A stretch of DNA of 64,000 nt from Candidatus Latescibacterota bacterium (GTDB taxonomy: Bacteria; Latescibacterota; UBA2968; UBA8231), in NCBI GenBank assembly GCA_963422735.1, contig OY730476.1, positions 1,728,001 through 1,792,000 of the forward strand, in the 5' to 3' direction. The notes below the pieces were generated by a model. It saw only the letters and a program-made list of their open reading frames with translations, ran no database searches and was not told where the DNA came from. The translations under genes were made by a program, and so were the position numbers. Positions 1 to 11,112 of the stretch are shown piece by piece; the stretch's first letter is position 1, and each line of letters opens with the position of its first letter.

Positions 1-3000
1 TCGCCGCGCACAGCCGCCCTAGCAAAGACTACGCCTGGCTGCGCGGCCCTAGCGGCCCGACCCAAAATGTGGTAATCGGCGCGACCGGGCTGTTGGGCCG
101 CTTCCCGCGCCTCGGTCCAGCCTTGGTTGGTAGCGGCCAAGCCCCATAAAGCACGCGGTGCCCGCACCTTGGTCTCCTCGACCGATAGGCCGTCGCGCCA
201 ACAACCGCGCTGGGCGAATAGACCGCCGTCTTCCCGATAGATCAGCCCGCCGCCCACGTATTGGATCAACTGCTGTTGGCTGCCCCGCGCCCCCGATAGC
301 GTCAACAAGGCTAGGGTCCCCAAGTCGTTGTCGTCGAAATCGGCCTGCCGGTAGAAAGCCGCCACTAACTCGTCGCTGTACATTTGCCACTCGTCCCAAT
401 TGATCTCTTTGGGTTGCTCAGGCCACTCCCTGCTCGAACCCAAGAAGGGATTGAAGGAGGCCCCCGACTGCTTGCAGACCTCAAAGCCGCGCCGCGTTAG
501 CTGGTCGAGCACTTCCAGTGCTCGCTCCCAACCCTCGCGCTGCAGCACCTGAGCTAGCAAGCGGTTGAGTGTGCGCTTGGTGAATAGCCGGCTGCCATCC
601 ACGGCCCCTTTGGTCAGCTCCTCCACTTCAGCGCGACCTTCCTCGGTGCGGCACAGCCGAGCCAAGCCCCAGCTCATGCCGTGATAGTTGTCGGCTATGT
701 AGCGCCATACATCCGCATCGCGCTGTATGTGTCCGGCCACCGACAGCGCGGTTCCGGCTTCGGCCTGAGCTTCTTCAGTGAGGGGCAAAAACACCTCGAT
801 GTGGTCGCCGTCGAAATCTAGCTCCATCAGTCGGCAAACGCGCGGATGGACGCGCACGGCAGCCCCGGCCAAACGCTGCGGACGAAAGGCCACCACCGCA
901 GTGGGCGGCACGTGGCCCTCGTCCACCAGCACCCGCTGGGCACTGTACAGCAGCACCCACGAGCGTGCCATAATCGCGTCTAGAACCTCAGCCGCTCGGG
1001 CTGAACGCCGCGCACGACCCATCTCCCGCTCTACCTGAGGCCCAAACAAAGCCCAAGCCATTTCCTCGGGCAGGCCCACTTGGTCGAGATTCAGTTCAAA
1101 GCCCGAAGCGAGCGCGGCTCGGCCACTGAACAGCGGTCTGGCCTCGAAGTGAAGGAACTCCGGGCGCAACAACGCGGCAAAAAAATCCTCCACCCGTTGG
1201 GCCACCTGGGCCACTGCGGGGCCGGTTAGGGCCTCGGGTGCATCGCTATCGACGACGCGTTGCAAGCGCTCATTGGCTTCGACCAAATCCTCGAAGCAGG
1301 CTCGGATTGGATCGAACTCGGTCCTCGCGGGCAAGGCAACGGGAGACCCCACCGTCCCGATCTGGTGCCCCGGGGCCCACGGGTGCGGCACTAGCTGGGC
1401 CAAGGTCAGCCCCTCGGGCTCGGCAAAGGAAAAGCGCAACTCCGCGCCCGCCAATTTGGCCCGTATCCCGGCCATACCCAACAACTGCTGCAACAAGGCA
1501 AAGCGCGGGGACGGGGCTGGGGACGGGGACACCGGGCCGGTGGTTAGGCGCTGGCCCAGCGTATTGGCGTCGGGCCGCTCAGCTGCGGCCGTGTTGAACA
1601 AAGCGTGGATATTGGCTACGGCCCCGGCCTCACACAAAGCTCCGTAGGCCATCATATCGAGCTCTGGGCCGCCGGCCCTTGCCACCGCGGTTTCCAAGCG
1701 TTCGGCCGCGGTGTGGGTCAGGCGGCCCCAGTACACCCAACCCACGGTACTGCGATAGGGCAGCTTTGCGCCTTTGAGGGTCAGTTGCTCCATGCCGTCT
1801 TCGGGCAGTCCCGCCTCGACTAGACGCGCTTTCAACATCTCTTCGCTGGGTGCCTCGAAAGGCGGCACCACCGCCGGAGTCTCTTCGGCCCGGGCAATGC
1901 GACCCATGACCGCCTCGCGCTGCTGGCCGAAATTGAGCCGCGAGACCATACTGGTGGGACTGAAGATGAGCTCTACCAGCGCCCCATCGGGCAACTGCGG
2001 CATGTCGGCGTCGGGCAGGATGCGGGTCACCACCCCTTTGGCACCGTGGCGATTGCCCATGCGGTCTCCCACCCCGACTGCGGCGGGAAAATTCATCCGC
2101 GCCGCAGCCGACTCGCTGATGACCAAGCCATCCTCAAACGTGTCCCCGTCCCACATGATGAAGGCGGTCAGCAGATTGTACCCACCCCAAAAGTCGGGGG
2201 CTTCGGGCTCGTATCCCGTCTGCACTAGAGCTGGCTCGGGTTTGTTGCCCTTAGAGGCCAAGCACTGGTCGTACTGCTGGCGGAACCAACCCGTAGAGTG
2301 GACCGGAGCCGCTGTATCGGCGGCACTCGTCCACTGGCGCATCATGTTGATGCCCATCAGGGCGCGATTGGTATCGTCGTGTTCGAGAAAGGGCACCATG
2401 GAGGCCGAAAAGCCCAAGATGCTGTCGGGCGCATTGTCGATCCGTTCGAGCTTGCCGTCGCGGATGCGAGCCCCGCGGGCCACTTCGAGCACGCGGCCAA
2501 TATTGGGGCCCTCAGGGGTGCAGTAGGGGCACACTAGGCCGTATTGGCTGTAGGGGAAAACGCCCTGATCGTCAAAAGGCTCGACGACAACGGGGATCAA
2601 AGTCAGCCGCCGCAGATGGGTATAGCGGTCGAGCCAGTTGGTCGCCTGTAGGTACTGCGAGGTTTCCCCCAAGTGGAAGTCGCGCATCCAGGCGTCCAGC
2701 GGCAGCCAGTTGCGCACCAAGTCGCCGTCCCAAGCCAACTGTTCGGGGGCCACCTCCAACCTTTGGTCAATAAAGTCGTAGAGCTGCTCACCCACGCACA
2801 GAATCCGCGCTTGTTCGAGCGCACGCCGGTCGGGATAGGGAACCACGACCCGGTAGTTGCCTTCAATGTGGAAAAGGCCGTCTCGGTCGGGCCGCGGCAA
2901 ATCCCGGTACTCAACCTCGACCGAGGCATGGCCGAGCCCCAAACTCAGTTTAACGGAAAAAGTATAAGGGTCCTGTTGTTCGACTCGATAATCGGCCAGC

Positions 3001-3092
3001 GGCAAGCGCTCGCCCAAAAGCCGGGGCAGTCGCTGGTGGACGAAAAGGTCAAAGGACTCCCGGTGCCAAGGTACGTCGAGATTCAATGTCAT
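1..3092 (-). CDS. Miniature single-chain RNA polymerase beta-beta' fusion-like protein (>1030 aa, 3' end outside window; not in ORF track)
   Basis: Manual translation from ATG 3092 (GGAGGA SD; ATGA overlap with sigma stop) is stop-free to the edge. RpoB-like motifs in order: GLFHIEGNYRVVV, SQYLQATNWLDRYTHLRRLT, YGLVCPYCTPEGPNIG, PFLEHDDTNRALMGINMMRQ, WDGDTFEDGLVISE, GDRMGNRHGAKGVV, SRLNFGQ, TVGWVYWGRLTH. RpoC-like motifs follow: FSGRA..VGLPEEMA, VHPRVCRLMELDFDGDHIEVFLPL, SGARGS. Confidence 0.93.
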   Translation of the reverse strand, partial: MTLNLDVPWHRESFDLFVHQRLPRLLGERLPLADYRVEQQDPYTFSVKLSLGLGHASVEVEYRDLPRPDRDGLFHIEGNYRVVVPYPDRRALEQARILCVGEQLYDFIDQRLEVAPEQLAWDGDLVRNWLPLDAWMRDFHLGETSQYLQATNWLDRYTHLRRLTLIPVVVEPFDDQGVFPYSQYGLVCPYCTPEGPNIGRVLEVARGARIRDGKLERIDNAPDSILGFSASMVPFLEHDDTNRALMGINMMRQWTSAADTAAPVHSTGWFRQQYDQCLASKGNKPEPALVQTGYEPEAPDFWGGYNLLTAFIMWDGDTFEDGLVISESAAARMNFPAAVGVGDRMGNRHGAKGVVTRILPDADMPQLPDGALVELIFSPTSMVSRLNFGQQREAVMGRIARAEETPAVVPPFEAPSEEMLKARLVEAGLPEDGMEQLTLKGAKLPYRSTVGWVYWGRLTHTAAERLETAVARAGGPELDMMAYGALCEAGAVANIHALFNTAAAERPDANTLGQRLTTGPVSPSPAPSPRFALLQQLLGMAGIRAKLAGAELRFSFAEPEGLTLAQLVPHPWAPGHQIGTVGSPVALPARTEFDPIRACFEDLVEANERLQRVVDSDAPEALTGPAVAQVAQRVEDFFAALLRPEFLHFEARPLFSGRAALASGFELNLDQVGLPEEMAWALFGPQVEREMGRARRSARAAEVLDAIMARSWVLLYSAQRVLVDEGHVPPTAVVAFRPQRLAGAAVRVHPRVCRLMELDFDGDHIEVFLPLTEEAQAEAGTALSVAGHIQRDADVWRYIADNYHGMSWGLARLCRTEEGRAEVEELTKGAVDGSRLFTKRTLNRLLAQVLQREGWERALEVLDQLTRRGFEVCKQSGASFNPFLGSSREWPEQPKEINWDEWQMYSDELVAAFYRQADFDDNDLGTLALLTLSGARGSQQQLIQYVGGGLIYREDGGLFAQRGCWRDGLSVEETKVRAPRALWGLAATNQGWTEAREAAQQPGRADYHILGRAARAAQPGVVFARAAVRG

Positions 3093-3688
3093 TGATGTTC
3101 CTCCGGGTTATTAATGGCCTGCCAAGCCCGTGAGATCTGGCGGCGGCCGTGGTGCAGACGCGACTTTACGGTGCCTTCGGGAATGCCCAGTCGCTCGGCC
3201 GCATCTCGCACTTCGACTTGGGCGTCGTAGATCAGACGGAAAACCTCGCGCTTGTCCTCGGACAGTGCCTGTACTTGTCGCCGCAGCCAGCGCTGCTGGT
3301 CGGCCCGTTCCACCTCGGCGTCGGGGCGCTCAGACGCGGCCTCAATCATCCATTCGGGCACTTGGTGCGTTTCCTTCTCCACGGTTTCAGACAGCATTTC
3401 CAGCCGTTGCTCCCGCCGCCTTTGCACAGTGCGCAGGTGAGTTAGAGAAAGATGAGTAGCAATGCGGAACAGCCAGCCAGCCGCAGAGCCTCGACCGCTC
3501 CATTGGCCAGCTCGGTTCCACACCCGCAAGAAAACCTCCTGCACCACGTCGTTGGTACTCGCATCATCGCGGACGATGCGGCGCACGTGGTGGTGGATCT
3601 GCTCCCGATAGCGCTCAAAGAACTGCTCAAACGCGCGGGCATCGCGTTCTTTTATTTGCACTATGAGTTGTGAGTCCGGTATCTGCAT
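3089..3688 (-). CDS. ECF-type sigma-70 factor (199 aa)
   Basis: Region 2 (DVVQEVFLRVW...GWLFRIA) and region 4 (AERLGIPEGTVKSRLHHGR). ATG 3688 with GGAGG SD is preferred over the ORF-track start at 3907. Confidence 0.93.
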   Translation of the reverse strand: MQIPDSQLIVQIKERDARAFEQFFERYREQIHHHVRRIVRDDASTNDVVQEVFLRVWNRAGQWSGRGSAAGWLFRIATHLSLTHLRTVQRRREQRLEMLSETVEKETHQVPEWMIEAASERPDAEVERADQQRWLRRQVQALSEDKREVFRLIYDAQVEVRDAAERLGIPEGTVKSRLHHGRRQISRAWQAINNPEEHQ

Positions 3689-3707
3689 CGAGGCCCTCCG
3701 CAGATAA

Positions 3708-3734
3708 AGACGCCGCCCGGAAAGTACAGGTTCA
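3708..3734 (-). promoter_or_regulatory. Putative ECF-type (autoregulatory) promoter TGAACC-N16-CGTCT
   Basis: Minus strand reads TGAACC tgtactttccgggcgg CGTCT, ending 20 nt before the sigma ATG. Matches the general AAC/CGT ECF promoter consensus. Confidence 0.6.
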
Positions 3735-3746
3735 AGGACGAAGATG

Positions 3747-3780
3747 AAAAAGCCCGGAAACCTCATTGGAGACTGGCTTT
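3747..3780 (-). terminator. Hairpin plus U-tract upstream of the sigma gene (possible terminator/attenuator)
   Basis: Minus strand AAAGCC-AGUCUC-CAAU-GAGGUU-UCCG-GGCUUUUU. An extended -10-like TGgTAAGAT lies further upstream at 3821-3813. Confidence 0.35.
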
Positions 3781-3881
3781 CTCCCCGAATTGACTCACTA
3801 GTCGAGCACGGTATCTTACCACCCACCGCCTGAAGACCAGCCTCAACCCTTACAGACGCTCCTGCGCTAGATCGAGACCCC

Positions 3882-4559
3882 ATGAGCCTAACACCAGCCC
3901 AACTCAACCAGTTCCACCGCGACGGCTATATCATCGTCTCCGATCTGTTCACGGCCGACGAGATGGATGCCGCCCTAGCGGCGATGGAACAGATTTTCTA
4001 CGGCCAATCCTTCCAGCAATGGTTGGCCGTTTGCGACCGCGGTGAAGCGGCCAGAGTCTCGGACGGCTTTACCACCACGCACGACCACTCGGAGGGGCGC
4101 TCGCAATTTCCCGTGGGTGCGCCGGCCTTGGACCGGCTAATAGAAAAAGAGACCTACCTCGACATTTTTGAGCAATGCTTAGGCGCAAAAGCTAGCTACT
4201 GCAATGCCCACCTCTTTATGCGCTCGGGGCCTACTGACAAGCGCCATCCCCACAACCCTTGGGAGGGCTACCACATGGACCACTACACTAATTGCCTGCT
4301 GCCGCCCCACGACCAGACAGGCCGGTTTGACTACGTCAATTCGGGGGTGTACCTGCACGATGTCGGCGACGACGGTGCCCCCATGCTGGTCATCCCCGGC
4401 TCGCACAAAGTAGCCGGTCCCGCTTTTGTGCGAGCCTTTGCCCAAGGCAACGCTGCGGGTGGGTCCTTCAAAGACCTGTGCCAAGTCACCGAACTAGCCG
4501 CCCCGGTCCCCGCCACCGCCCGGCGCGGGAGTCTATGGCGGCCATCCGCCGCCTGCTAA
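3882..4559 (+). pseudogene. PhyH-family Fe(II)/2OG dioxygenase, C-terminally truncated
   Basis: LTPAQLNQFHRDGY, HMD, VIPGSHK. The sequence breaks after ARRGS, before the distal His strand. Confidence 0.75.
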
Positions 4560-5344
4560 GTCACCTCGATCCAGCGGCCTTGCGGGGCCGCCTCACGGCC
4601 ATCCCGGTAGTCAACGAGGCGGCCTATTGGCGCGGCCAGCGCACGGCCGAAGATGGGCTGGACTTGGCCCGCACCTGCCCAGGTCGGCCCGATGGCTCGA
4701 TTACCGAGCGCACAGCCCACGCCGTCAGCCAAGAAATCCGCCGGGCCGACTATCTCATCGACCTGCACAGCGGCGGGCTAGTCATGGAATTCTACCCTAC
4801 CGCGGGGTACACCCTGCATCCCGATAAAGCCATCCTCGAGGTGCAACGGCGCATGGCCCGAGCGCTGAATATGCCCATCATCTGGGGCACTTCGGCCCGG
4901 CTCGACGGACGCACGCTTTCGGTAGCCCGCGACGCCAACGTGCCAGCCATCTACGCCGAGTGGATGGGGGGTGGCACGTGCGATCCCCAGGGCGTGGATG
5001 CTTATTTCGAGGGCTGCTTGAACATCTTGGCCGAACTAGATCTGATCGACCGCACCCTGCCGCCCCTGCACACCGAGTACACCGTGGAGGACGACCGCGA
5101 CAACGCTGGCCACGTGCAGCTCAATTACCCAGCGCCCTTTGCTGGCTATTTTGAACCCCAAGTGACATTGAAAGCACCCGTGCAACCGGGCGATGTGATC
5201 GGCACGGTGGTAGATCATCTGGGGCAGCGGCGCGAGGAAGTGGTATCGACCCAAGCGGGCTTGATCCTGTGTCTGCGGGTCTTCAACCGCGTCCACCAAG
5301 GCGACAGTTTGGCCGCGGTTTTAGAACTCGACCCTTCCCAATAA
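4528..5344 (+). pseudogene. Succinylglutamate desuccinylase/aspartoacylase (AstE/AspA) family, N-terminally truncated
   Basis: DLARTCPG, LIDLHSGG, AIYAEWMGG and a C-terminal biotinyl-like hairpin are present. The N-terminal G-x-HGDE Zn motif is missing. Confidence 0.75.
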
Positions 5345-5612: not shown

Positions 5613-6473
5613 TTATACGCTGGCCACCTTGCTGCAATCTAGCGAAAACATGAGCGGCAAACTGCGATCTGGAATTTCCCAGTACCCATCGGCACCTTGC
5701 ACCATACACGCGAATCTGCGATAAGAGCAGTAAGGAAACTCCTCTAAGCGGTCGATCGCCAGACCAGCGGATGCAGCCGCTGTGACAAATTCCCCCATGT
5801 GGTGAGACCACTGGTATGTAGTCGTGTTCACCAGACGACCGCCCTCACCTGTGTAAGATTCCTCGGCCGTGCATAATTCGGGCGTCTCCTCGTGGAAATA
5901 GCTGTCGTTGAGTGAAAATGAACCGCTCGCGGCATCATAGGTAAGCATGTCGAGCACTGGATGTCCATCGACGACGAAAACTCGGCCGCGAAGTTTCAAC
6001 ATTGCGCTCGCAATCGAAAACCAGCGCTGGAGATCCGGTATCCAGCAGAACACGCCGTGGGAAGCAAAGACCAGATCGAATGATTGGCGCTCCAAGCGAT
6101 CGCCCACAGAGTACACGTTAGCACAGTGGAACTCGGCACTCAATCCAGTCTCTTCGGCCAGTTCGCGTGCTTTCTCAATTGCTGCGTCGGAAAAGTCCAC
6201 GCCCGTCACGATCCCACCCATTCTACTGAGAGAAAGGGAATCGAGGCCGAAGTGGCATTGCAGGTGGAGAATTCGCTTTCCGGCGACATCGCCAAGCGCT
6301 TTGATCTCGACCGGTCCCAAGGTGCATTGACCAGAGAGAAATCCCAACACGTCGTAAAACTTCGTCCCCAAGTGGAGTCCGACTCTTTCGTTCCAATTCT
6401 CGCGATTGGCGCGAAAGTAGGTTTCGTCAAAGGGCTTCAATCTTGAAACCTTTCGCGTATCCCCGGCGCACAT
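5613..6473 (-). CDS. Class I SAM-dependent methyltransferase
   Basis: NRENWNERV, LHLQCHFGLDSLSL, VTGVDFS, DGHP. Exact start uncertain. Confidence 0.85.
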   Translation of the reverse strand: MCAGDTRKVSRLKPFDETYFRANRENWNERVGLHLGTKFYDVLGFLSGQCTLGPVEIKALGDVAGKRILHLQCHFGLDSLSLSRMGGIVTGVDFSDAAIEKARELAEETGLSAEFHCANVYSVGDRLERQSFDLVFASHGVFCWIPDLQRWFSIASAMLKLRGRVFVVDGHPVLDMLTYDAASGSFSLNDSYFHEETPELCTAEESYTGEGGRLVNTTTYQWSHHMGEFVTAAASAGLAIDRLEEFPYCSYRRFACMVQGADGYWEIPDRSLPLMFSLDCSKVASV

Positions 6474-6499
6474 CGTCTATCACCCTGTCCGAGAACATT

Positions 6500-7471
6500 T
6501 TAGGCGCAGACGGCCGCATCGGTGCTCCAGCGGTTGAAGGGGGTATGCTCCTCTTGGGCCAGCCGGTCGCGGGTGTCGCGCCAGAGCTTTTCCCACGCTA
6601 CGGGATCGCGCAAGACGCTTGCGGGGTTAGCTCTGCTGCGGGCGGCAAAGCCGGGGAAGAGGTCGCGGCCCGTGGGCTGGCCGACTGGATTGTAGCGCAA
6701 ATCAAAGCTCCAGCGCACATCGTCGCTGGCGTTGACCAGCGAGCCGTGGATGGTGTGGCGAGTGAGGAAGAGCACATCGCCGGGCTGCATGGGCACCGGC
6801 AGGGCCGCGTCCATATCCATAAGCAGCTCCGGGATCCACAGACCCCCCGGTCCCCCCGGACAGTGCGTGTGCAGCCCCCGGCGGTGGCTACGGGGCATAA
6901 TCTGCAGACAGCCGTTTTCGATCGTCGCCTCATTGAGCGGAAACCACACCGTCAAGACCTCCGAGTCGTCGGCTTCGGGCAGGACTACGCCGTTGTCTTG
7001 GTGCCAGTTGGTGGCACTGACTAGGGCTTGGCCGTTGTGGTCTTTGGGCACTAGGCGTTCGGGCGGCTTGAGGCGCACGTGCTGGACGGGGTTGGACCAG
7101 ATCTCGGGACCGACGATGGACTCGACCGCATCGAGGAGGTCGGGGTCGGTAATGCAGCGAAAGACGGCTGGCCCGGCCCAGAAGGGAGTGTCGGCCTCGA
7201 TGCCCGTCTGGGGCAGGGAGAAGTCGAAGTACTGGGCGTGGATCTGGCCGCTATCGACGACGATTTGAGTCAGGCGCTTGCCAAAGGGCAGGTCATCGTA
7301 CGTGGACGCGATCCGGCCGGCTTGGTAGAGCGCACAAGCGAGCTTGTCGAGGACGCTGTGGTATTCGTCGATAATGGGCTGGATGACCTCGTCCACGTCG
7401 AGCATCCCCCTGACTAGTAAGTAGCCTTCTTCGTCAAAGTGTGCGAGTTGTTCGTCCGTCAAGCATGGCAT
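6500..7471 (-). CDS. PhyH-family dioxygenase
   Basis: WHQDNGV, GCLQIMPRSH, PGDVLFLTRHTIHGS, RWSFDLRY. Confidence 0.9.
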   Translation of the reverse strand: MPCLTDEQLAHFDEEGYLLVRGMLDVDEVIQPIIDEYHSVLDKLACALYQAGRIASTYDDLPFGKRLTQIVVDSGQIHAQYFDFSLPQTGIEADTPFWAGPAVFRCITDPDLLDAVESIVGPEIWSNPVQHVRLKPPERLVPKDHNGQALVSATNWHQDNGVVLPEADDSEVLTVWFPLNEATIENGCLQIMPRSHRRGLHTHCPGGPGGLWIPELLMDMDAALPVPMQPGDVLFLTRHTIHGSLVNASDDVRWSFDLRYNPVGQPTGRDLFPGFAARSRANPASVLRDPVAWEKLWRDTRDRLAQEEHTPFNRWSTDAAVCA

Positions 7472-7666
7472 ATGCTTTCCTCCGTGGGTTCATGGGGTTC
7501 TCCTTTAGGGTTAAGGAGGTTAATTATTCTTTATCCACTCGGCACCAAAGGCATCTAGCCAGTATGTGCGTGTCCTGTTGAAGAGTTCAATTTGCGCTTG
7601 AGTATAGCGATATGGTCCGTTTGCGAATAGCTAAAAGGAGGAGCGTCGCTTAATTGTCGCGTCGCA

Positions 7667-8584
7667 ATGGTTATGGAATTTCCCAAACTCGACGAAGCCC
7701 TGCGCTTGGATCGGTTGAAACCGCCGACAGACAAGGTGCGGATGGTGCTCGACACCGATACGTACAACGAGATCGACGATCAGTTCGCAGTGGTCCAAGC
7801 GCTGCTCTCGCCCGACCAGCTTGCAGTCGAGGCGATCTACGCGGCACCGTTCTACAACAGCCGTTCGGCCGGGCCGGGCGACGGGATGGAGAAAAGCTAC
7901 GCGGAAATCCTGCAGCTCTTGGAGCGGTTGGATATCTCGCCTGAGGGCTTGGTGTTCCGAGGAGCGACGGATATACTGCGAGACGACGCGCCGCAGGAAA
8001 GCGCAGCGGTCGATGACCTGATCGCCAAATCCAAAACCGCCGACCCGCTCTACGTGGTAGCTATCGGCGCGCTCACTAACATAGCGTCGGCTATTCTGCA
8101 AGATCCTGCCATAATCGAGCGGATCGTCGTGGTCTGGCTCGGCGGCCACGCTCACTACTGGCCAACGGCTGACGAATTCAACCTTCAAGGCGATCTCGTA
8201 GCAGCACAGGTGGTCTTTGACAGCGGCGTGCCCTTCGTCCAGATCCCATGCCACCCCGCGGCCTCGCACCTACAGACGACGCTGGCGGAGTTGGAGCGCT
8301 TCGTCAAGGGGCGAGGGGCGATTGGCGACTATTTGGTCGATATCTTCACCGCCTATTCCCAAAACCACTTCGCCTCTTCCAAGGTGATCTGGGACATGTC
8401 GGCGGTCGCTTGGCTGCTCGACGCATCGTGGGTGCCAACCGACGTGGTACATAGCCCGGTGTTGACCGATCAAAAGACTTGGAGCCACGACTCGTCGCGG
8501 CACTTTATGCGGGTGGCGCGAACGGTGCGGCGCGATGCGATCTTCGGAGATTTATTCGAGAAACTGGAATTGCGCCAGAGCTAG
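7667..8584 (+). CDS. Inosine/uridine-preferring nucleoside hydrolase family
   Basis: DTDTYNEIDDQFA, AIGALTNIA, EFNL, IWDMSA. Confidence 0.9.
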   Translation: MVMEFPKLDEALRLDRLKPPTDKVRMVLDTDTYNEIDDQFAVVQALLSPDQLAVEAIYAAPFYNSRSAGPGDGMEKSYAEILQLLERLDISPEGLVFRGATDILRDDAPQESAAVDDLIAKSKTADPLYVVAIGALTNIASAILQDPAIIERIVVVWLGGHAHYWPTADEFNLQGDLVAAQVVFDSGVPFVQIPCHPAASHLQTTLAELERFVKGRGAIGDYLVDIFTAYSQNHFASSKVIWDMSAVAWLLDASWVPTDVVHSPVLTDQKTWSHDSSRHFMRVARTVRRDAIFGDLFEKLELRQS

Positions 8585-8604
8585 TCGATTAGTAGCATAC
8601 ATCC

Positions 8605-11112
8605 ATGACCACTGTCGTCCTCGCCGAAAAGCCCAGTGTGGCGCGCGATATTGCCCGGGTCCTAGGGGCCAACAAACGCGGCAAAGGCTATGTCGAAGGC
8701 AACGGCTATATCGTCGCCTGGGCACTTGGGCACCTCGTGCAATTCGCCGAGCCAAACGATTACGGCCCGCCTTGGAACAGCCGCTGGTCTTTTGCCCAGC
8801 TACCGATGATCCCCGAGCAGTGGAAGCTCAAGGCGACGCGCTCGACCTCCGACCAGTACCAAATCGTCAAAAAATTGCTCAACAGCCCGCAGACGGAGCG
8901 CGTCATCTGCGCCACGGACGCCGGGCGCGAGGGCGAGCACATCTTTCGCCTGATCTACGAGCACGCCCGCTGCAAAAAGCCATGTAGCCGGCTGTGGGTT
9001 TCGAGCCTGACCGACGAGGCGATTCGGGGCGGTTTCCGCGCCTTGCAGGCGGGAGCGGCCTTCGATCATCTCGCTGCGGCCGCACGGGCGCGGGGCCAAG
9101 CCGACTGGTTGATGGGCATGAACCTGACCCGCGCCTATACTGTCCACAATAAGGCACTATGCACCATCGGCCGAGTGCAGACGCCAACCCTGTCCATGAT
9201 AGTCAAGCGCGATGCGGCGATTGCCAGCTTTGTAAAGGCGTACTTTTACGAGTTGGTCGCGCAGTTAGAAGAGGGCTTCGCCGCCAAGTACTGCAAAGAT
9301 GGCCAGACGCGCATCGACAAGAAGGAGGAAGCCGAGCGCCTCCATCGCCAGCTCAGCCCCAACAAGGTCGGCACCGTCCGCAAAATTGAGAAGAAAGTCA
9401 AAAAACATCGGCCACCCCCCCTCTACGACCTCAACAACCTCCAGCGCGACGCCAACCGCTACTTTGGCTTTACCGCGGCGCAAACCCTCGAACGCGCCCA
9501 AGCCCTCTACGAAACCCACAAGCTCATCACGTACCCGCGCACCGAGAGCCGCCACATCGCCGAGGACATGGTGCCCAAGCTGCCCGGTATCCTAGAAAAG
9601 CTAGCGCACCCTCAGGCAGCGGCTGCACTGGCGCGCCTGCGCGGTGGGCACCGGCTCAGCAGAGCGTATGTCGATCGCACCAAGCTCACCGATCACCACG
9701 CCATTATTCCCACCGGGCAACGGCCCACCCCTAATTTTGCACCGGACCTACAGAAGGTGTACGACTTGGTGGTGGCGCGCTTTGTCGGCGTCTTCCTGCC
9801 CGACCAAGTGGTTGAGGAGACGACTGTCTTGCTCGACATCGGCGGTGCCGATTTTGTGGCTAAAGGGTCTATCGTCTTAGAAGCGGGCTGGACGGTGGTG
9901 GAACCTGCCCCCGCGAAAGCGGGAGTGCGGCCTCCAGATGCTGCAAAAGGCAAGGGACAGAAAGACGACGATCAGCGACAGGTGCTCCCGCCGCTGCAAC
10001 AAGGTCAGCAAGTTCGCGTAACGCGCATGGATGTGGTCGAGAAGGAAACCCAGCCGCCCCGGCCGTACAACGACGCCACGCTCCTAGCGGCGATGAAAAA
10101 CGCCGGCCGCGAAATCGAGGACGACGAGTTGGCCGCGGCCATGAAGGAATCGGGGCTGGGCACACCGGCGACGAGGGCCGAGACCATCGAAAAGCTGATT
10201 CGCACCGGCTATGTAGTCCGCAACCACAAGGCGATCACCTCGACAGAGAAGGGCAAAGCCCTAGTGAGCTTGGTGGCCGAACCGCTGCGTAGCCCGGAAC
10301 TGACGGCCGAGTGGGAGCAGCAGCTCAAGGAAATCGAGGAAGGACAGCGGCCGGTGGCCGGGTTCTACGAAGAGATCGCCGAGCTGGTGAGGACGCTAGT
10401 GCCCACCGTTCAGCAGGGGCCGGCGCTCTCGCCCGAGCAAGCGGCGCAGGCACAAGGCAAGAAGAGGGGCAAGGGGAAAGGCCGCGGCAAGGTGTTAGGG
10501 CCTTGTCCCAAGTGCAAAGAGGGGCAAGTAGTAGAAAACGCCAAAGCGTACGGATGCAGCCGCTACCGGGAGGGCTGCAACTTGACTATCTGGAAGACGG
10601 TGGCACACAAGCGGCTAACCGAAAAGCAGGCGCAGTTGTTGATGGCCAACGGTCGCACCGAAAAGATGCAGGGCTTTATCTCCAAGGCCGGCAAGAAGTT
10701 TGCGGCGCGGCTCAAATTCGACGATGAGTTCAAAGTCGTCTTTGAGTTTGATGATCGGCCGCGAAATGGCTCCTCTAGCCCCTCAGCCCAACAGAGGCCA
10801 CCAGAGGAGACTGTCCGATCCGCCGCCGACCCATGGGCCGCCCTTACCTGCCCCAAGTGTCGGCAGGGCCAAATCATCGAGGGCCAACGCGGCTTTGGCT
10901 GCAATCGCTATCGCCAAGGATGCGACTTCGTGGTGTGGAAGGAAATGGCGGGCAAGAAGCTAACGGAACGGCAGATACAGACCTTGATCGCCAAAGGCAA
11001 AACCGGGGTGATCAAGGGCTTCAAAAGCAAAAAGGGCGGCAAGTTCGACGCGCGGTTGAGGCTCGGGCCGGAGTGCAAGGCCGCGTTTGATTTTCCCGCC
11101 AACGCGTGCTGA
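8605..11112 (+). CDS. topB: DNA topoisomerase III with two C-terminal Zn-ribbon/Toprim C-repeat units
   Basis: AEKPSVA, ATDAGREGE, GRVQTPTL, catalytic ITYPRT, GLGTPATRA. Duplicated CPKC..YGC..C..WK..GF.SK.GK.F.ARL. Confidence 0.93.
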   Translation: MTTVVLAEKPSVARDIARVLGANKRGKGYVEGNGYIVAWALGHLVQFAEPNDYGPPWNSRWSFAQLPMIPEQWKLKATRSTSDQYQIVKKLLNSPQTERVICATDAGREGEHIFRLIYEHARCKKPCSRLWVSSLTDEAIRGGFRALQAGAAFDHLAAAARARGQADWLMGMNLTRAYTVHNKALCTIGRVQTPTLSMIVKRDAAIASFVKAYFYELVAQLEEGFAAKYCKDGQTRIDKKEEAERLHRQLSPNKVGTVRKIEKKVKKHRPPPLYDLNNLQRDANRYFGFTAAQTLERAQALYETHKLITYPRTESRHIAEDMVPKLPGILEKLAHPQAAAALARLRGGHRLSRAYVDRTKLTDHHAIIPTGQRPTPNFAPDLQKVYDLVVARFVGVFLPDQVVEETTVLLDIGGADFVAKGSIVLEAGWTVVEPAPAKAGVRPPDAAKGKGQKDDDQRQVLPPLQQGQQVRVTRMDVVEKETQPPRPYNDATLLAAMKNAGREIEDDELAAAMKESGLGTPATRAETIEKLIRTGYVVRNHKAITSTEKGKALVSLVAEPLRSPELTAEWEQQLKEIEEGQRPVAGFYEEIAELVRTLVPTVQQGPALSPEQAAQAQGKKRGKGKGRGKVLGPCPKCKEGQVVENAKAYGCSRYREGCNLTIWKTVAHKRLTEKQAQLLMANGRTEKMQGFISKAGKKFAARLKFDDEFKVVFEFDDRPRNGSSSPSAQQRPPEETVRSAADPWAALTCPKCRQGQIIEGQRGFGCNRYRQGCDFVVWKEMAGKKLTERQIQTLIAKGKTGVIKGFKSKKGGKFDARLRLGPECKAAFDFPANAC

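Follow-up and report, generated by a model that had tools for sequence, protein, structure and literature searches.

The window analysed here is a stretch of 64,000 nucleotides (nt) from Candidatus Latescibacterota bacterium (contig OY730476.1, positions 1,728,001 to 1,792,000). Between positions 1 and 3734 its minus strand carries two overlapping genes, an upstream gene for a sigma factor of the extracytoplasmic function (ECF) type and a downstream gene for a short fusion of RNA polymerase (RNAP) subunits beta and beta', referred to below as the mini-RNAP. The initial annotation of this DNA reported a sigma gene of 199 amino acids (aa) with its TGA overlapping the ATG at 3092 of a frame of at least 1030 codons, and both genes are confirmed at these places. 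The stop and start codons share bases (ATGA overlap), and the mini-RNAP frame is free of stops from the ATG at 3092 to the left edge of the window, which corresponds to 1030 codons. The stop codon, which the annotation had sought to the left, lies 19 codons (58 nt) past the window edge, giving a protein of 1049 aa (L001:1441-4590(-)). The features of the locus are as follows.

Window 3709..3735, minus strand: ECF-type promoter-like motif TTGAAC-N16-GCGTC, ending 20 nt before the sigma ATG.
Window 3089-3688, minus strand: ECF sigma gene, 199 aa, ATG at 3688; recognised by Pfam, NCBIfam and orthologues.
Window 1..3092, minus strand: mini-RNAP gene (1049-aa single-chain beta-beta' protein, P0001); recognised by its open reading frame (ORF), Pfam and homologues.
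Window 1518..3092, minus strand: RpoB-like half, residues 1-525; reduced beta N-terminal domain, fork, double-psi barrel without flap insert, and beta C-terminal region.
Window 2127..2138, minus strand: beta FEDG motif, residues 319-322, with the acidic pair of the second metal site; aligns to FEDA at 777-780 of the genome's own RpoB.
Window 2034..2054, minus strand: beta NRHGAKG motif, residues 347-353, part of GDR..NRHGAKG.
Window 1..1448, minus strand: RpoC-like half, residues ~549-1049; clamp helices, active-site barrel, funnel/F-loop (SGARGS), bridge helix and C-terminal block.
Window 1170..1322, minus strand: beta' clamp-helix coiled coil, residues 591-641, with AlphaFold2 (AF2) helices at 591-615 and 620-641.
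Window 804..818, minus strand: catalytic DFDGD, residues 759-763; beta'-type barrel with the DxDxD signature.
G000:C1:1727943-1728000, left of the window: last 19 codons and stop of the mini-RNAP gene.

The host genome (G000) is complete and consists of a single contig of 4.95 Mb. The canonical rpoB and rpoC genes, whose presence elsewhere in the genome the annotation proposed to confirm, are present in full length (open frames of 1271 and 1373 aa) at G000:C1:161755-169709, about 1.56 Mb from the pair. From downstream, a PhyH-family gene converges on the mini-RNAP gene with 2 nt between the stops, so that the operon consists of the sigma and mini-RNAP genes only. An independent run yielded a 21.3-kb contig that covers window positions 1-3900 and differs there by 4 substitutions and a single intergenic indel of 11 nt. 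This spanning contig and the full-length homologues in more than 100 independent assemblies rule out a chimeric assembly or other artefact.

The Pfam domains of the mini-RNAP follow the order Rpb2_3 (residues 146-210), Rpb2_6 (best stretch 340-467, E 2.3e-29) and Rpb1_2 (733-781, E 6.9e-11). This order, together with a structural alignment of residues 3-525 on beta and 549-1002 on beta', bears out the annotated succession of about 550 aa of RpoB-type and about 480 aa of RpoC-type sequence. The anatomy was mapped by BLASTP and by a family hidden Markov model (HMM) against the genome's own RpoB and RpoC. On RpoB the HMM matches blocks 138-161 (weak, independent E-value (i-E) 0.08), 404-538 (end of the N-terminal domain and fork), 604-665, 747-781 (FED acidic pair) and 1034-1266 (second half of the barrel to the C-terminus). 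On RpoC it matches 270-494 (clamp helices, switch region and DFDGD barrel) and 562-782 (funnel, SGARGS F-loop and bridge helix), and BLASTP aligns mini-RNAP 600-995 with RpoC 271-778. The core blocks are about 40% identical to the genome's own subunits and the order of motifs is unchanged.

Large parts of both subunits have no counterpart in the mini-RNAP. These are the lobe (162-403), external domain (539-603) and flap (782-1033) of RpoB, and residues 1-269 (N-terminal clamp/zinc region) and ~783-1299 (trigger loop and jaw) of RpoC. The gap between FEDG and NRHGAKG is about 20 residues, compared with 252 (782-1033) between the matching blocks of the genome's own RpoB, which indicates that the flap/sandwich-barrel hybrid motif (SBHM) insert of cellular beta is absent. 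The mini-RNAP C-terminus weakly resembles RpoC 1300-1330 (i-E 0.015, a score reached in 2 of 300 shuffles). The SRLFVG block at this end was considered as a possible trigger-loop tip and rejected, as it aligns instead, weakly, to that RpoC stretch.

AF2, given 15 sequences, produced a model of moderate quality (predicted local distance difference test (pLDDT) 70.9, predicted template modelling score (pTM) 0.57). VIA-align places model residues 4-525 on Escherichia coli beta 25-1319 (Z 16.6, root-mean-square deviation (rmsd) 4.8, 469 aligned) and residues 549-1002 on beta' 17-800 (Z 16.7, rmsd 5.0, 436 aligned). The best Foldseek matches of the model are all bacterial or plastid beta' chains. 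Against the PDB sequence set the family profile finds bacterial beta (E 9e-80) and beta' (E 5e-48), and no solved single-chain relative occurs among the 60 PDB matches listed for it.

The docking surfaces for sigma factors have fared differently in the two halves. The beta' clamp helices are the main docking site of sigma region 2, and the beta flap tip helix holds sigma region 4. In the mini-RNAP the clamp-helix hairpin 591-641 is predicted with confidence by AF2 (block pLDDT about 83-92), and N607, P619 and L622 of this region are invariant in alignment A1; residues 600-638 are identical to RpoC 271-309 at 8 of 39 positions. The region 4 dock is not retained, RpoB 782-1033 having no counterpart.

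Retention of catalytic residues was counted over 173 full-length homologues. The DFDGD aspartates are kept in 165 (D759), 170 (D761) and 167 (D763) of these proteins and the acidic pair of FEDG in 162 (E320) and 168 (D321); among the basic and glycine residues of NRHGAKG, R348 and G350 are present in all 173 and K352 in 164. As judged from these defining motifs (DxDxD, basic residues and acidic pair), the mini-RNAP is a two-barrel RNAP. It is under purifying selection, as the annotation had suggested: the ratio of nonsynonymous to synonymous substitution rates (dN/dS, pairwise NG86) lies at 0.128-0.184, i.e., 0.13-0.18, for 11 pairs of mini-RNAPs from three lineages and at 0.071-0.179 for 6 sigma pairs.

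The upstream protein contains sigma regions 2 and 4 only in Pfam (Sigma70_r2, E 3.9e-15; r4_2, E 2.7e-13). It passes the NCBIfam model TIGR02937 for the sigma70-ECF superfamily with 98.5 bits (cut-off 42.9), and no narrower NCBIfam model is passed. By this domain content the gene encodes an ECF (group 4) sigma-70 factor. In the sigma alignment A2, W189 is invariant after region 4.2 and is followed in most members by an acidic W-E-E/D tail, which may be a family-specific contact.

The linkage between the two genes was followed in 39 loci (L006-L044) that hold mini-RNAP members in contigs from one genome per species. A tblastn search with the window sigma finds a same-strand upstream orthologue (35-91% identity) in 38 of them, and in the one exception the sequence extends just 52 nt upstream. 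The spacing of the two genes can be measured in 37 loci: they overlap in 13, lie 2-25 nt apart in 11 and 73-263 nt apart in nine (the Poribacteria type), and in four a single unrelated gene on the same strand stands between them. The inserted genes encode an ABC exporter (ABC_membrane and ABC_tran; L015:4162-5958 and L028:4002-5762), an S9 peptidase (L027:3233-5638) and a 381-aa protein without Pfam match (L016:4783-5928); they may be cargo expressed from the sigma promoter. When all ORFs of 40 loci were clustered, no third conserved gene was found, and only sigma and mini-RNAP were common across lineages. Other neighbours are kept only among close relatives, and the remaining clusters that span lineages consist of antisense shadow ORFs within the sigma and mini-RNAP genes.

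Co-occurrence was scored in 168 genomes of the window's phylum (mini-RNAP at E <= 1e-60, sigma orthologue at E <= 1e-30). The mini-RNAP is present in 66 and the sigma in 63, with both in 62 and neither in 101. Five genomes have a single gene: four have the mini-RNAP only (two deletions, one contig edge and one intact orphan) and one has the sigma only (contig edge), the contig-edge cases being G149 and G156. The pair is dispensable; it is found in 21 of the 30 genomes of its own genus and is absent from the single-contig, 96%-complete G132. The analysis agrees with the annotation in treating the mini-RNAP as an accessory paralogue that occupies the usual anti-sigma position. The sigma and the mini-RNAP are a conserved two-gene system, inherited together.

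Three genomes represent stages of loss within the window's genus. In G135 (L174, C1:3420000-3426000) a deletion fuses sigma residue 32 to mini-RNAP residue 747. In G146 (L173) two deletions remove the sigma and mini-RNAP residues 16-93. The third genome is G143, to which we return below. A different variation is seen in G071, of the same class, which carries two module copies (C1:1427408-1431177 and 3367758-3371731), each with its own adjoining sigma.

The mini-RNAP is a member of a large family of proteins of about 1000-1100 aa. A word-indexed search gave 753 matches, including more than 100 full-length proteins of ~1000-1075 aa with 44-91% identity, and every name given to these matches is "hypothetical protein". 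An exhaustive search of 1.84 billion representatives gave 319 matches at E <= 1e-30. Depositor labels over the 39 loci include Latescibacterota, Gemmatimonadota, Poribacteria, Chloroflexota (Anaerolineae, Caldilineaceae), Armatimonadetes, Planctomycetota (Phycisphaerae, Brocadiia) and Myxococcales. The sole Gemmatimonadota record is 90% identical to Latescibacterota ones and its label may be wrong, so the phylum labels are counted as at least six. In one Armatimonadetes locus (L040:5965-9006) the mini-RNAP is split into three overlapping ORFs (5965-7041, 6717-8420 and 8314-9006), possibly by frameshifts or assembly errors.

In the ESM Atlas, two clusters with 73 and 135 members have the mini-RNAP architecture. 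Other single proteins there combine Rpb2_6 and Rpb1_2 at lengths of 1330, 1453, 1609, 1625, 1675 and 1787 aa; clusters of these lengths point to more fused beta-beta' forms of intermediate size in metagenomes. NCBIfam, PHROG and PADLOC contain no model describing the mini-RNAP, and its PHROGs matches are only beta-like and beta'-like families of ~1200 positions.

An origin from a mobile element was considered and rejected, as no member turned up in the phage, plasmid or viral collections searched. None of the 32 phage records with a match covers at least 80% of the mini-RNAP, and the corresponding figure for plasmids is 0 of 67. Among the viral-contig matches listed, the best has E 2e-18 and 22-35% identity, and no close relative occurs among at least 257 confirmed relatives in these contigs.

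Full-text literature searches found no description of the gene pair, in agreement with the annotation, and the family appears to be undescribed. The main text of the ECF reclassification paper, the part of that source considered, contains no mention of rpoB, rpoC, Rpb or "beta subunit"; its supplementary context tables might list the neighbourhood.

The promoter annotated at 3708-3734 is real as a motif. Its parts are TTGAAC (3735-3730), a 16-nt spacer and GCGTC (3713-3709), followed by GGAGGG (3699-3694). In the 150 nt that precede the sigma gene, 35 of 37 loci have the pattern [TC]GAAC-N15-17-G[TC]GTC, 34 of them with N16, and the two remaining regions carry near-variants. The background in the same loci is 13 matches in 1.02 Mb on both strands, i.e., 0.0019 expected per 150 nt. 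The 37 loci are related to one another, so the count is no formal test, though the motif holds across phyla. The GAAC...GTC layout is the usual form of ECF promoters, and its position before the sigma gene implies autoregulation of the operon.

The reading that we favour, at a probability of about 0.5, is that the pair constitutes a private RNAP, in which a catalytically active, single-chain minimal core would use its own ECF sigma. The core of ~115 kDa would have been made by fusion and trimming of bacterial beta and beta'. Sigma region 2 would dock on the retained clamp helices and steer the mini-core to promoters of the form TGAAC-N16-G(T/C)GTC, at least to that of its own operon, which would create a self-activating circuit. 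First expression would probably need the host core with the same sigma. The output may consist of target genes or of an RNA product, or it may be transcription that continues when the host enzyme is blocked.

Binding of the sigma to the mini-core and direction to promoters are suggested by three things taken together, namely the complete and conserved two-barrel active site, the clamp-helix hairpin, and inheritance and, for the most part, translation jointly with one particular sigma behind an ECF-type promoter. Prediction of a complex between mini-RNAP 1-800 and the sigma weakly favours contact, with a score of 0.47 against 0.00 for the best of three controls. Of 80 solved complexes 58 reach the mark used, as do 2 of 110 mismatched pairs; if passes at 0.60 or under are considered, they comprise only 7 of the 80 solved complexes but both mismatches. 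At least 37% of contacts are common to the runs, with a partner pLDDT of at least 63 and the author's own alignments as input, and the pass may reflect likeness to solved sigma-RNAP complexes.

The most complete form of this proposal is put forward tentatively, with odds somewhat below even. It envisages a self-sufficient RNAP of two polypeptides (115-kDa core and 23-kDa ECF sigma), which would form a private self-activating circuit orthogonal to the host, use TGAAC-N16-GTGTC promoters, dispense with alpha, omega, flap and trigger loop, and occur under at least six phylum labels.

Several observations weigh against a private sigma-directed polymerase. Genome G143 (L172) has an intact mini-RNAP in which the sigma is replaced by unrelated DNA, with no orthologue at E <= 1e-30. 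A catalytic Asp is substituted in ~2-5% of homologues, e.g., by S or Y at 759 in P0057 and P0059, which would mean either that loss of catalysis is tolerated in some lineages or that the substituted copies are decaying. The low identity of the clamp helices to those of the genome's own RpoC (8/39) fits a diverged, partner-specific interface and a loss of binding equally. Absence of the beta flap leaves the placement of sigma region 4 without its usual anchor, and the AF2 model is only moderate. The linker of ECF sigmas threads through the RNA-exit channel, according to the portion of the source available (PMC6372665), and most of this channel is deleted in the mini-RNAP.

The promoter evidence also contains points of this kind. 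A 16-nt spacer is usual for ECF promoters and suits the host holoenzyme just as well. No regulon emerged in G000, where TGAAC[CT]-N15-G[CT]GTC has 7 matches genome-wide, the number expected by chance, and 1 match in the first Mb compared with 0-2 in shuffles. Elsewhere, the stringent pattern TGAACYT-N12-CGGTGTC matched the sigma promoter alone in 4 of 5 other genomes; the fifth, G171, has one extra site, and the reversed control pattern gave 2 matches in the 5 genomes.

Two individual sites may be mentioned. The extra site of G171 (L168:1501-1526(-), C1:550146-550171) lies 25 kb from the module, upstream of a gene for an ABC-2 family permease, and shares TGAACTTTCGTC with the G171 sigma promoter, maybe by chance given the 2 control matches. 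In G000, at C1:~4295704 (L175:2179-2205(-)), a promoter-like ATGAACCTG...GTGCGTC, one of the 7 chance-level matches, is located 62 nt upstream of a gene for a 534-aa protein with a PPIC-type peptidyl-prolyl isomerase domain.

The data do not settle which of the three functions offered in the initial annotation applies (mini-polymerase, anti-sigma mimic or decoy), and the catalytic residues and clamp helices favour the mini-polymerase. Among other explanations, a sigma-independent specialised polymerase is rather unlikely. Here the sigma with the host core would only switch the operon on, and the enzyme would act without sigma, e.g., on a particular nucleic-acid template, like YonO or the RNA-dependent relatives of the fold. 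In favour of this are the conserved catalytic residues, the loss of the parts of flap and exit channel on which sigma normally relies, and the standard ECF geometry of the promoter; G143, with its intact mini-RNAP and no sigma, also fits, and YonO is described, in the part of its report available, as making RNA on scaffolds without added factors. However, strict co-inheritance and an overlapping stop and start are unneeded for a mere regulator, and the sigma-docking clamp helices have been kept despite wide deletion elsewhere. The complex prediction also leans weakly towards contact (0.47 against 0.00 for the best control), with the reservation that the pass may stem from likeness to solved sigma-RNAP structures.

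A role of the mini-RNAP as a core mimic, i.e., an anti-sigma or sigma buffer that would hold the sigma on its clamp helices until a signal arrives, with catalysis vestigial or secondary, is considered clearly unlikely. The gene does occupy the position usual for the anti-sigma gene in ECF operons, the sigma dock is retained, no other conserved anti-sigma candidate lies nearby, and the only clear promoter is that of the operon itself; the few homologues that have lost a catalytic Asp point the same way. Against this stands the active site, which is conserved across phyla in its entirety (both barrels, bridge helix and F-loop), each catalytic residue being kept in more than 93%. A dN/dS of 0.13-0.18 over the full 1049 codons is hard to square with a binding decoy, and Pfam at E <= 1 shows only Rpb2 and Rpb1 domains in the partner and no anti-sigma domain.

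It is very improbable that the mini-RNAP serves as a decoy or as a back-up when antibiotics or phage proteins inhibit the host RNAP, where its lack of the jaw, flap and lobe bound by such inhibitors would be of use. The only grounds for this are the deletions and the scattered, dispensable occurrence (21 of 30 genus genomes; G132 without it). PADLOC yields no family for the mini-RNAP and one marginal match for the sigma (E 4.7e-4), no conserved defence or resistance neighbours emerged, no member was found in the phages, plasmids or viral contigs searched, and nothing connects the mini-RNAP to any inhibitor.

Some observations concern the surroundings of the pair. The 11 nt absent from the contig of the independent run lie at window ~3825, between the sigma promoter and a divergent PhyH-family gene (window 3882-4559(+)). 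This upstream gene encodes 225 aa, compared with a 318-aa counterpart ORF in L006, and overlaps an AstE/AspA-family ORF (4478-5344(+)); in this genome it may have suffered a truncation or a frameshift. In X19, a run guessed to be of RNA, four short contigs (pieces of 106-222 nt), whose loose ends are dissimilar, fall inside the gene and bear neither way on expression.

To our knowledge, every characterised sigma-dependent RNAP is a five-subunit enzyme of ~400 kDa. Should the mini-RNAP prove active with its sigma, no smaller sigma-dependent RNAP would be known; it would be a natural minimal model of how transcription starts in bacteria and would reveal which parts of RNAP are truly required for sigma-directed initiation. 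It would also provide a compact orthogonal transcription module for synthetic biology and raise the question of why many uncultured lineages retain a second, private polymerase. If it is instead a core-mimic regulator, it would represent a new class of anti-sigma.

Compared with RpoB and RpoC, the mini-RNAP shows clear homology to the genome's own subunits, keeps the catalytic residues, bridge helix and clamp helices, and has bacterial beta and beta' as best PDB matches. It differs in being one chain of 1049 aa instead of ~2640 aa in total, in its location outside the rpoBC locus, in its accessory distribution (66 of 168 genomes) and in its pairing with an ECF sigma. It also stays far below the NCBIfam equivalog cut-offs for rpoB (TIGR02013, 158.1 vs. 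801.15) and rpoC (TIGR02386, 76.5 vs. 963.5). Full-length beta::beta' fusions (NF007172 and NF011417, which we take to be the Helicobacter/Wolbachia type) likewise have beta followed by beta' in one polypeptide, but these are full-length housekeeping enzymes with profiles of 2839-2890 positions. The mini-RNAP scores 148.3 against NF007172 (cut-off 5372) and 135.5 against NF011417 (cut-off 4632).

The known single-chain relatives, YonO and the killer-plasmid protein Orf6, are highly diverged and reside on mobile elements, and no initiation factor is known for them. In the accessible parts of its descriptions, YonO of prophage SPbeta is a single chain of ~100 kDa with both barrels, without trigger loop and with no initiation factor known; its beta barrel also is without the flap/SBHM insert (PMC7824862). 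The mini-RNAP is likewise a single chain with both barrels and without flap/SBHM insert or trigger loop. In contrast to YonO, whose active centre has, according to the available text of the YonO paper, only a few residues in common with multisubunit RNAPs and otherwise no homology to them, in line with the contrast drawn in the annotation, the mini-RNAP strongly resembles beta and beta', is chromosomal and is tied to a sigma, a distinction that is drawn from the partial description of YonO. Orf6 of the yeast killer plasmid pGKL2 is, in the portion of the source available, an Rpb2::Rpb1 fusion of 982 aa with about half of each subunit deleted (PMC2919709). It resembles the mini-RNAP in the order of second-largest and largest subunit and in its nearly equal size; compared by this description, it differs in being of the eukaryotic Rpb2/Rpb1 type, on a cytoplasmic linear plasmid and without sigma.

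The pair resembles ECF sigma/anti-sigma modules in having a sigma with regions 2 and 4 only, an operon of the autoregulated type, a GAAC...GTC promoter and an adjoining, downstream, co-transcribed partner gene; here, however, the partner is a homologue of the RNAP core and not an anti-sigma domain protein. Set against the known single-chain enzymes, the mini-RNAP is chromosomal and recognisably bacterial, has shed more than half of beta and beta' while keeping the sigma dock, and is tied to a sigma and a promoter.

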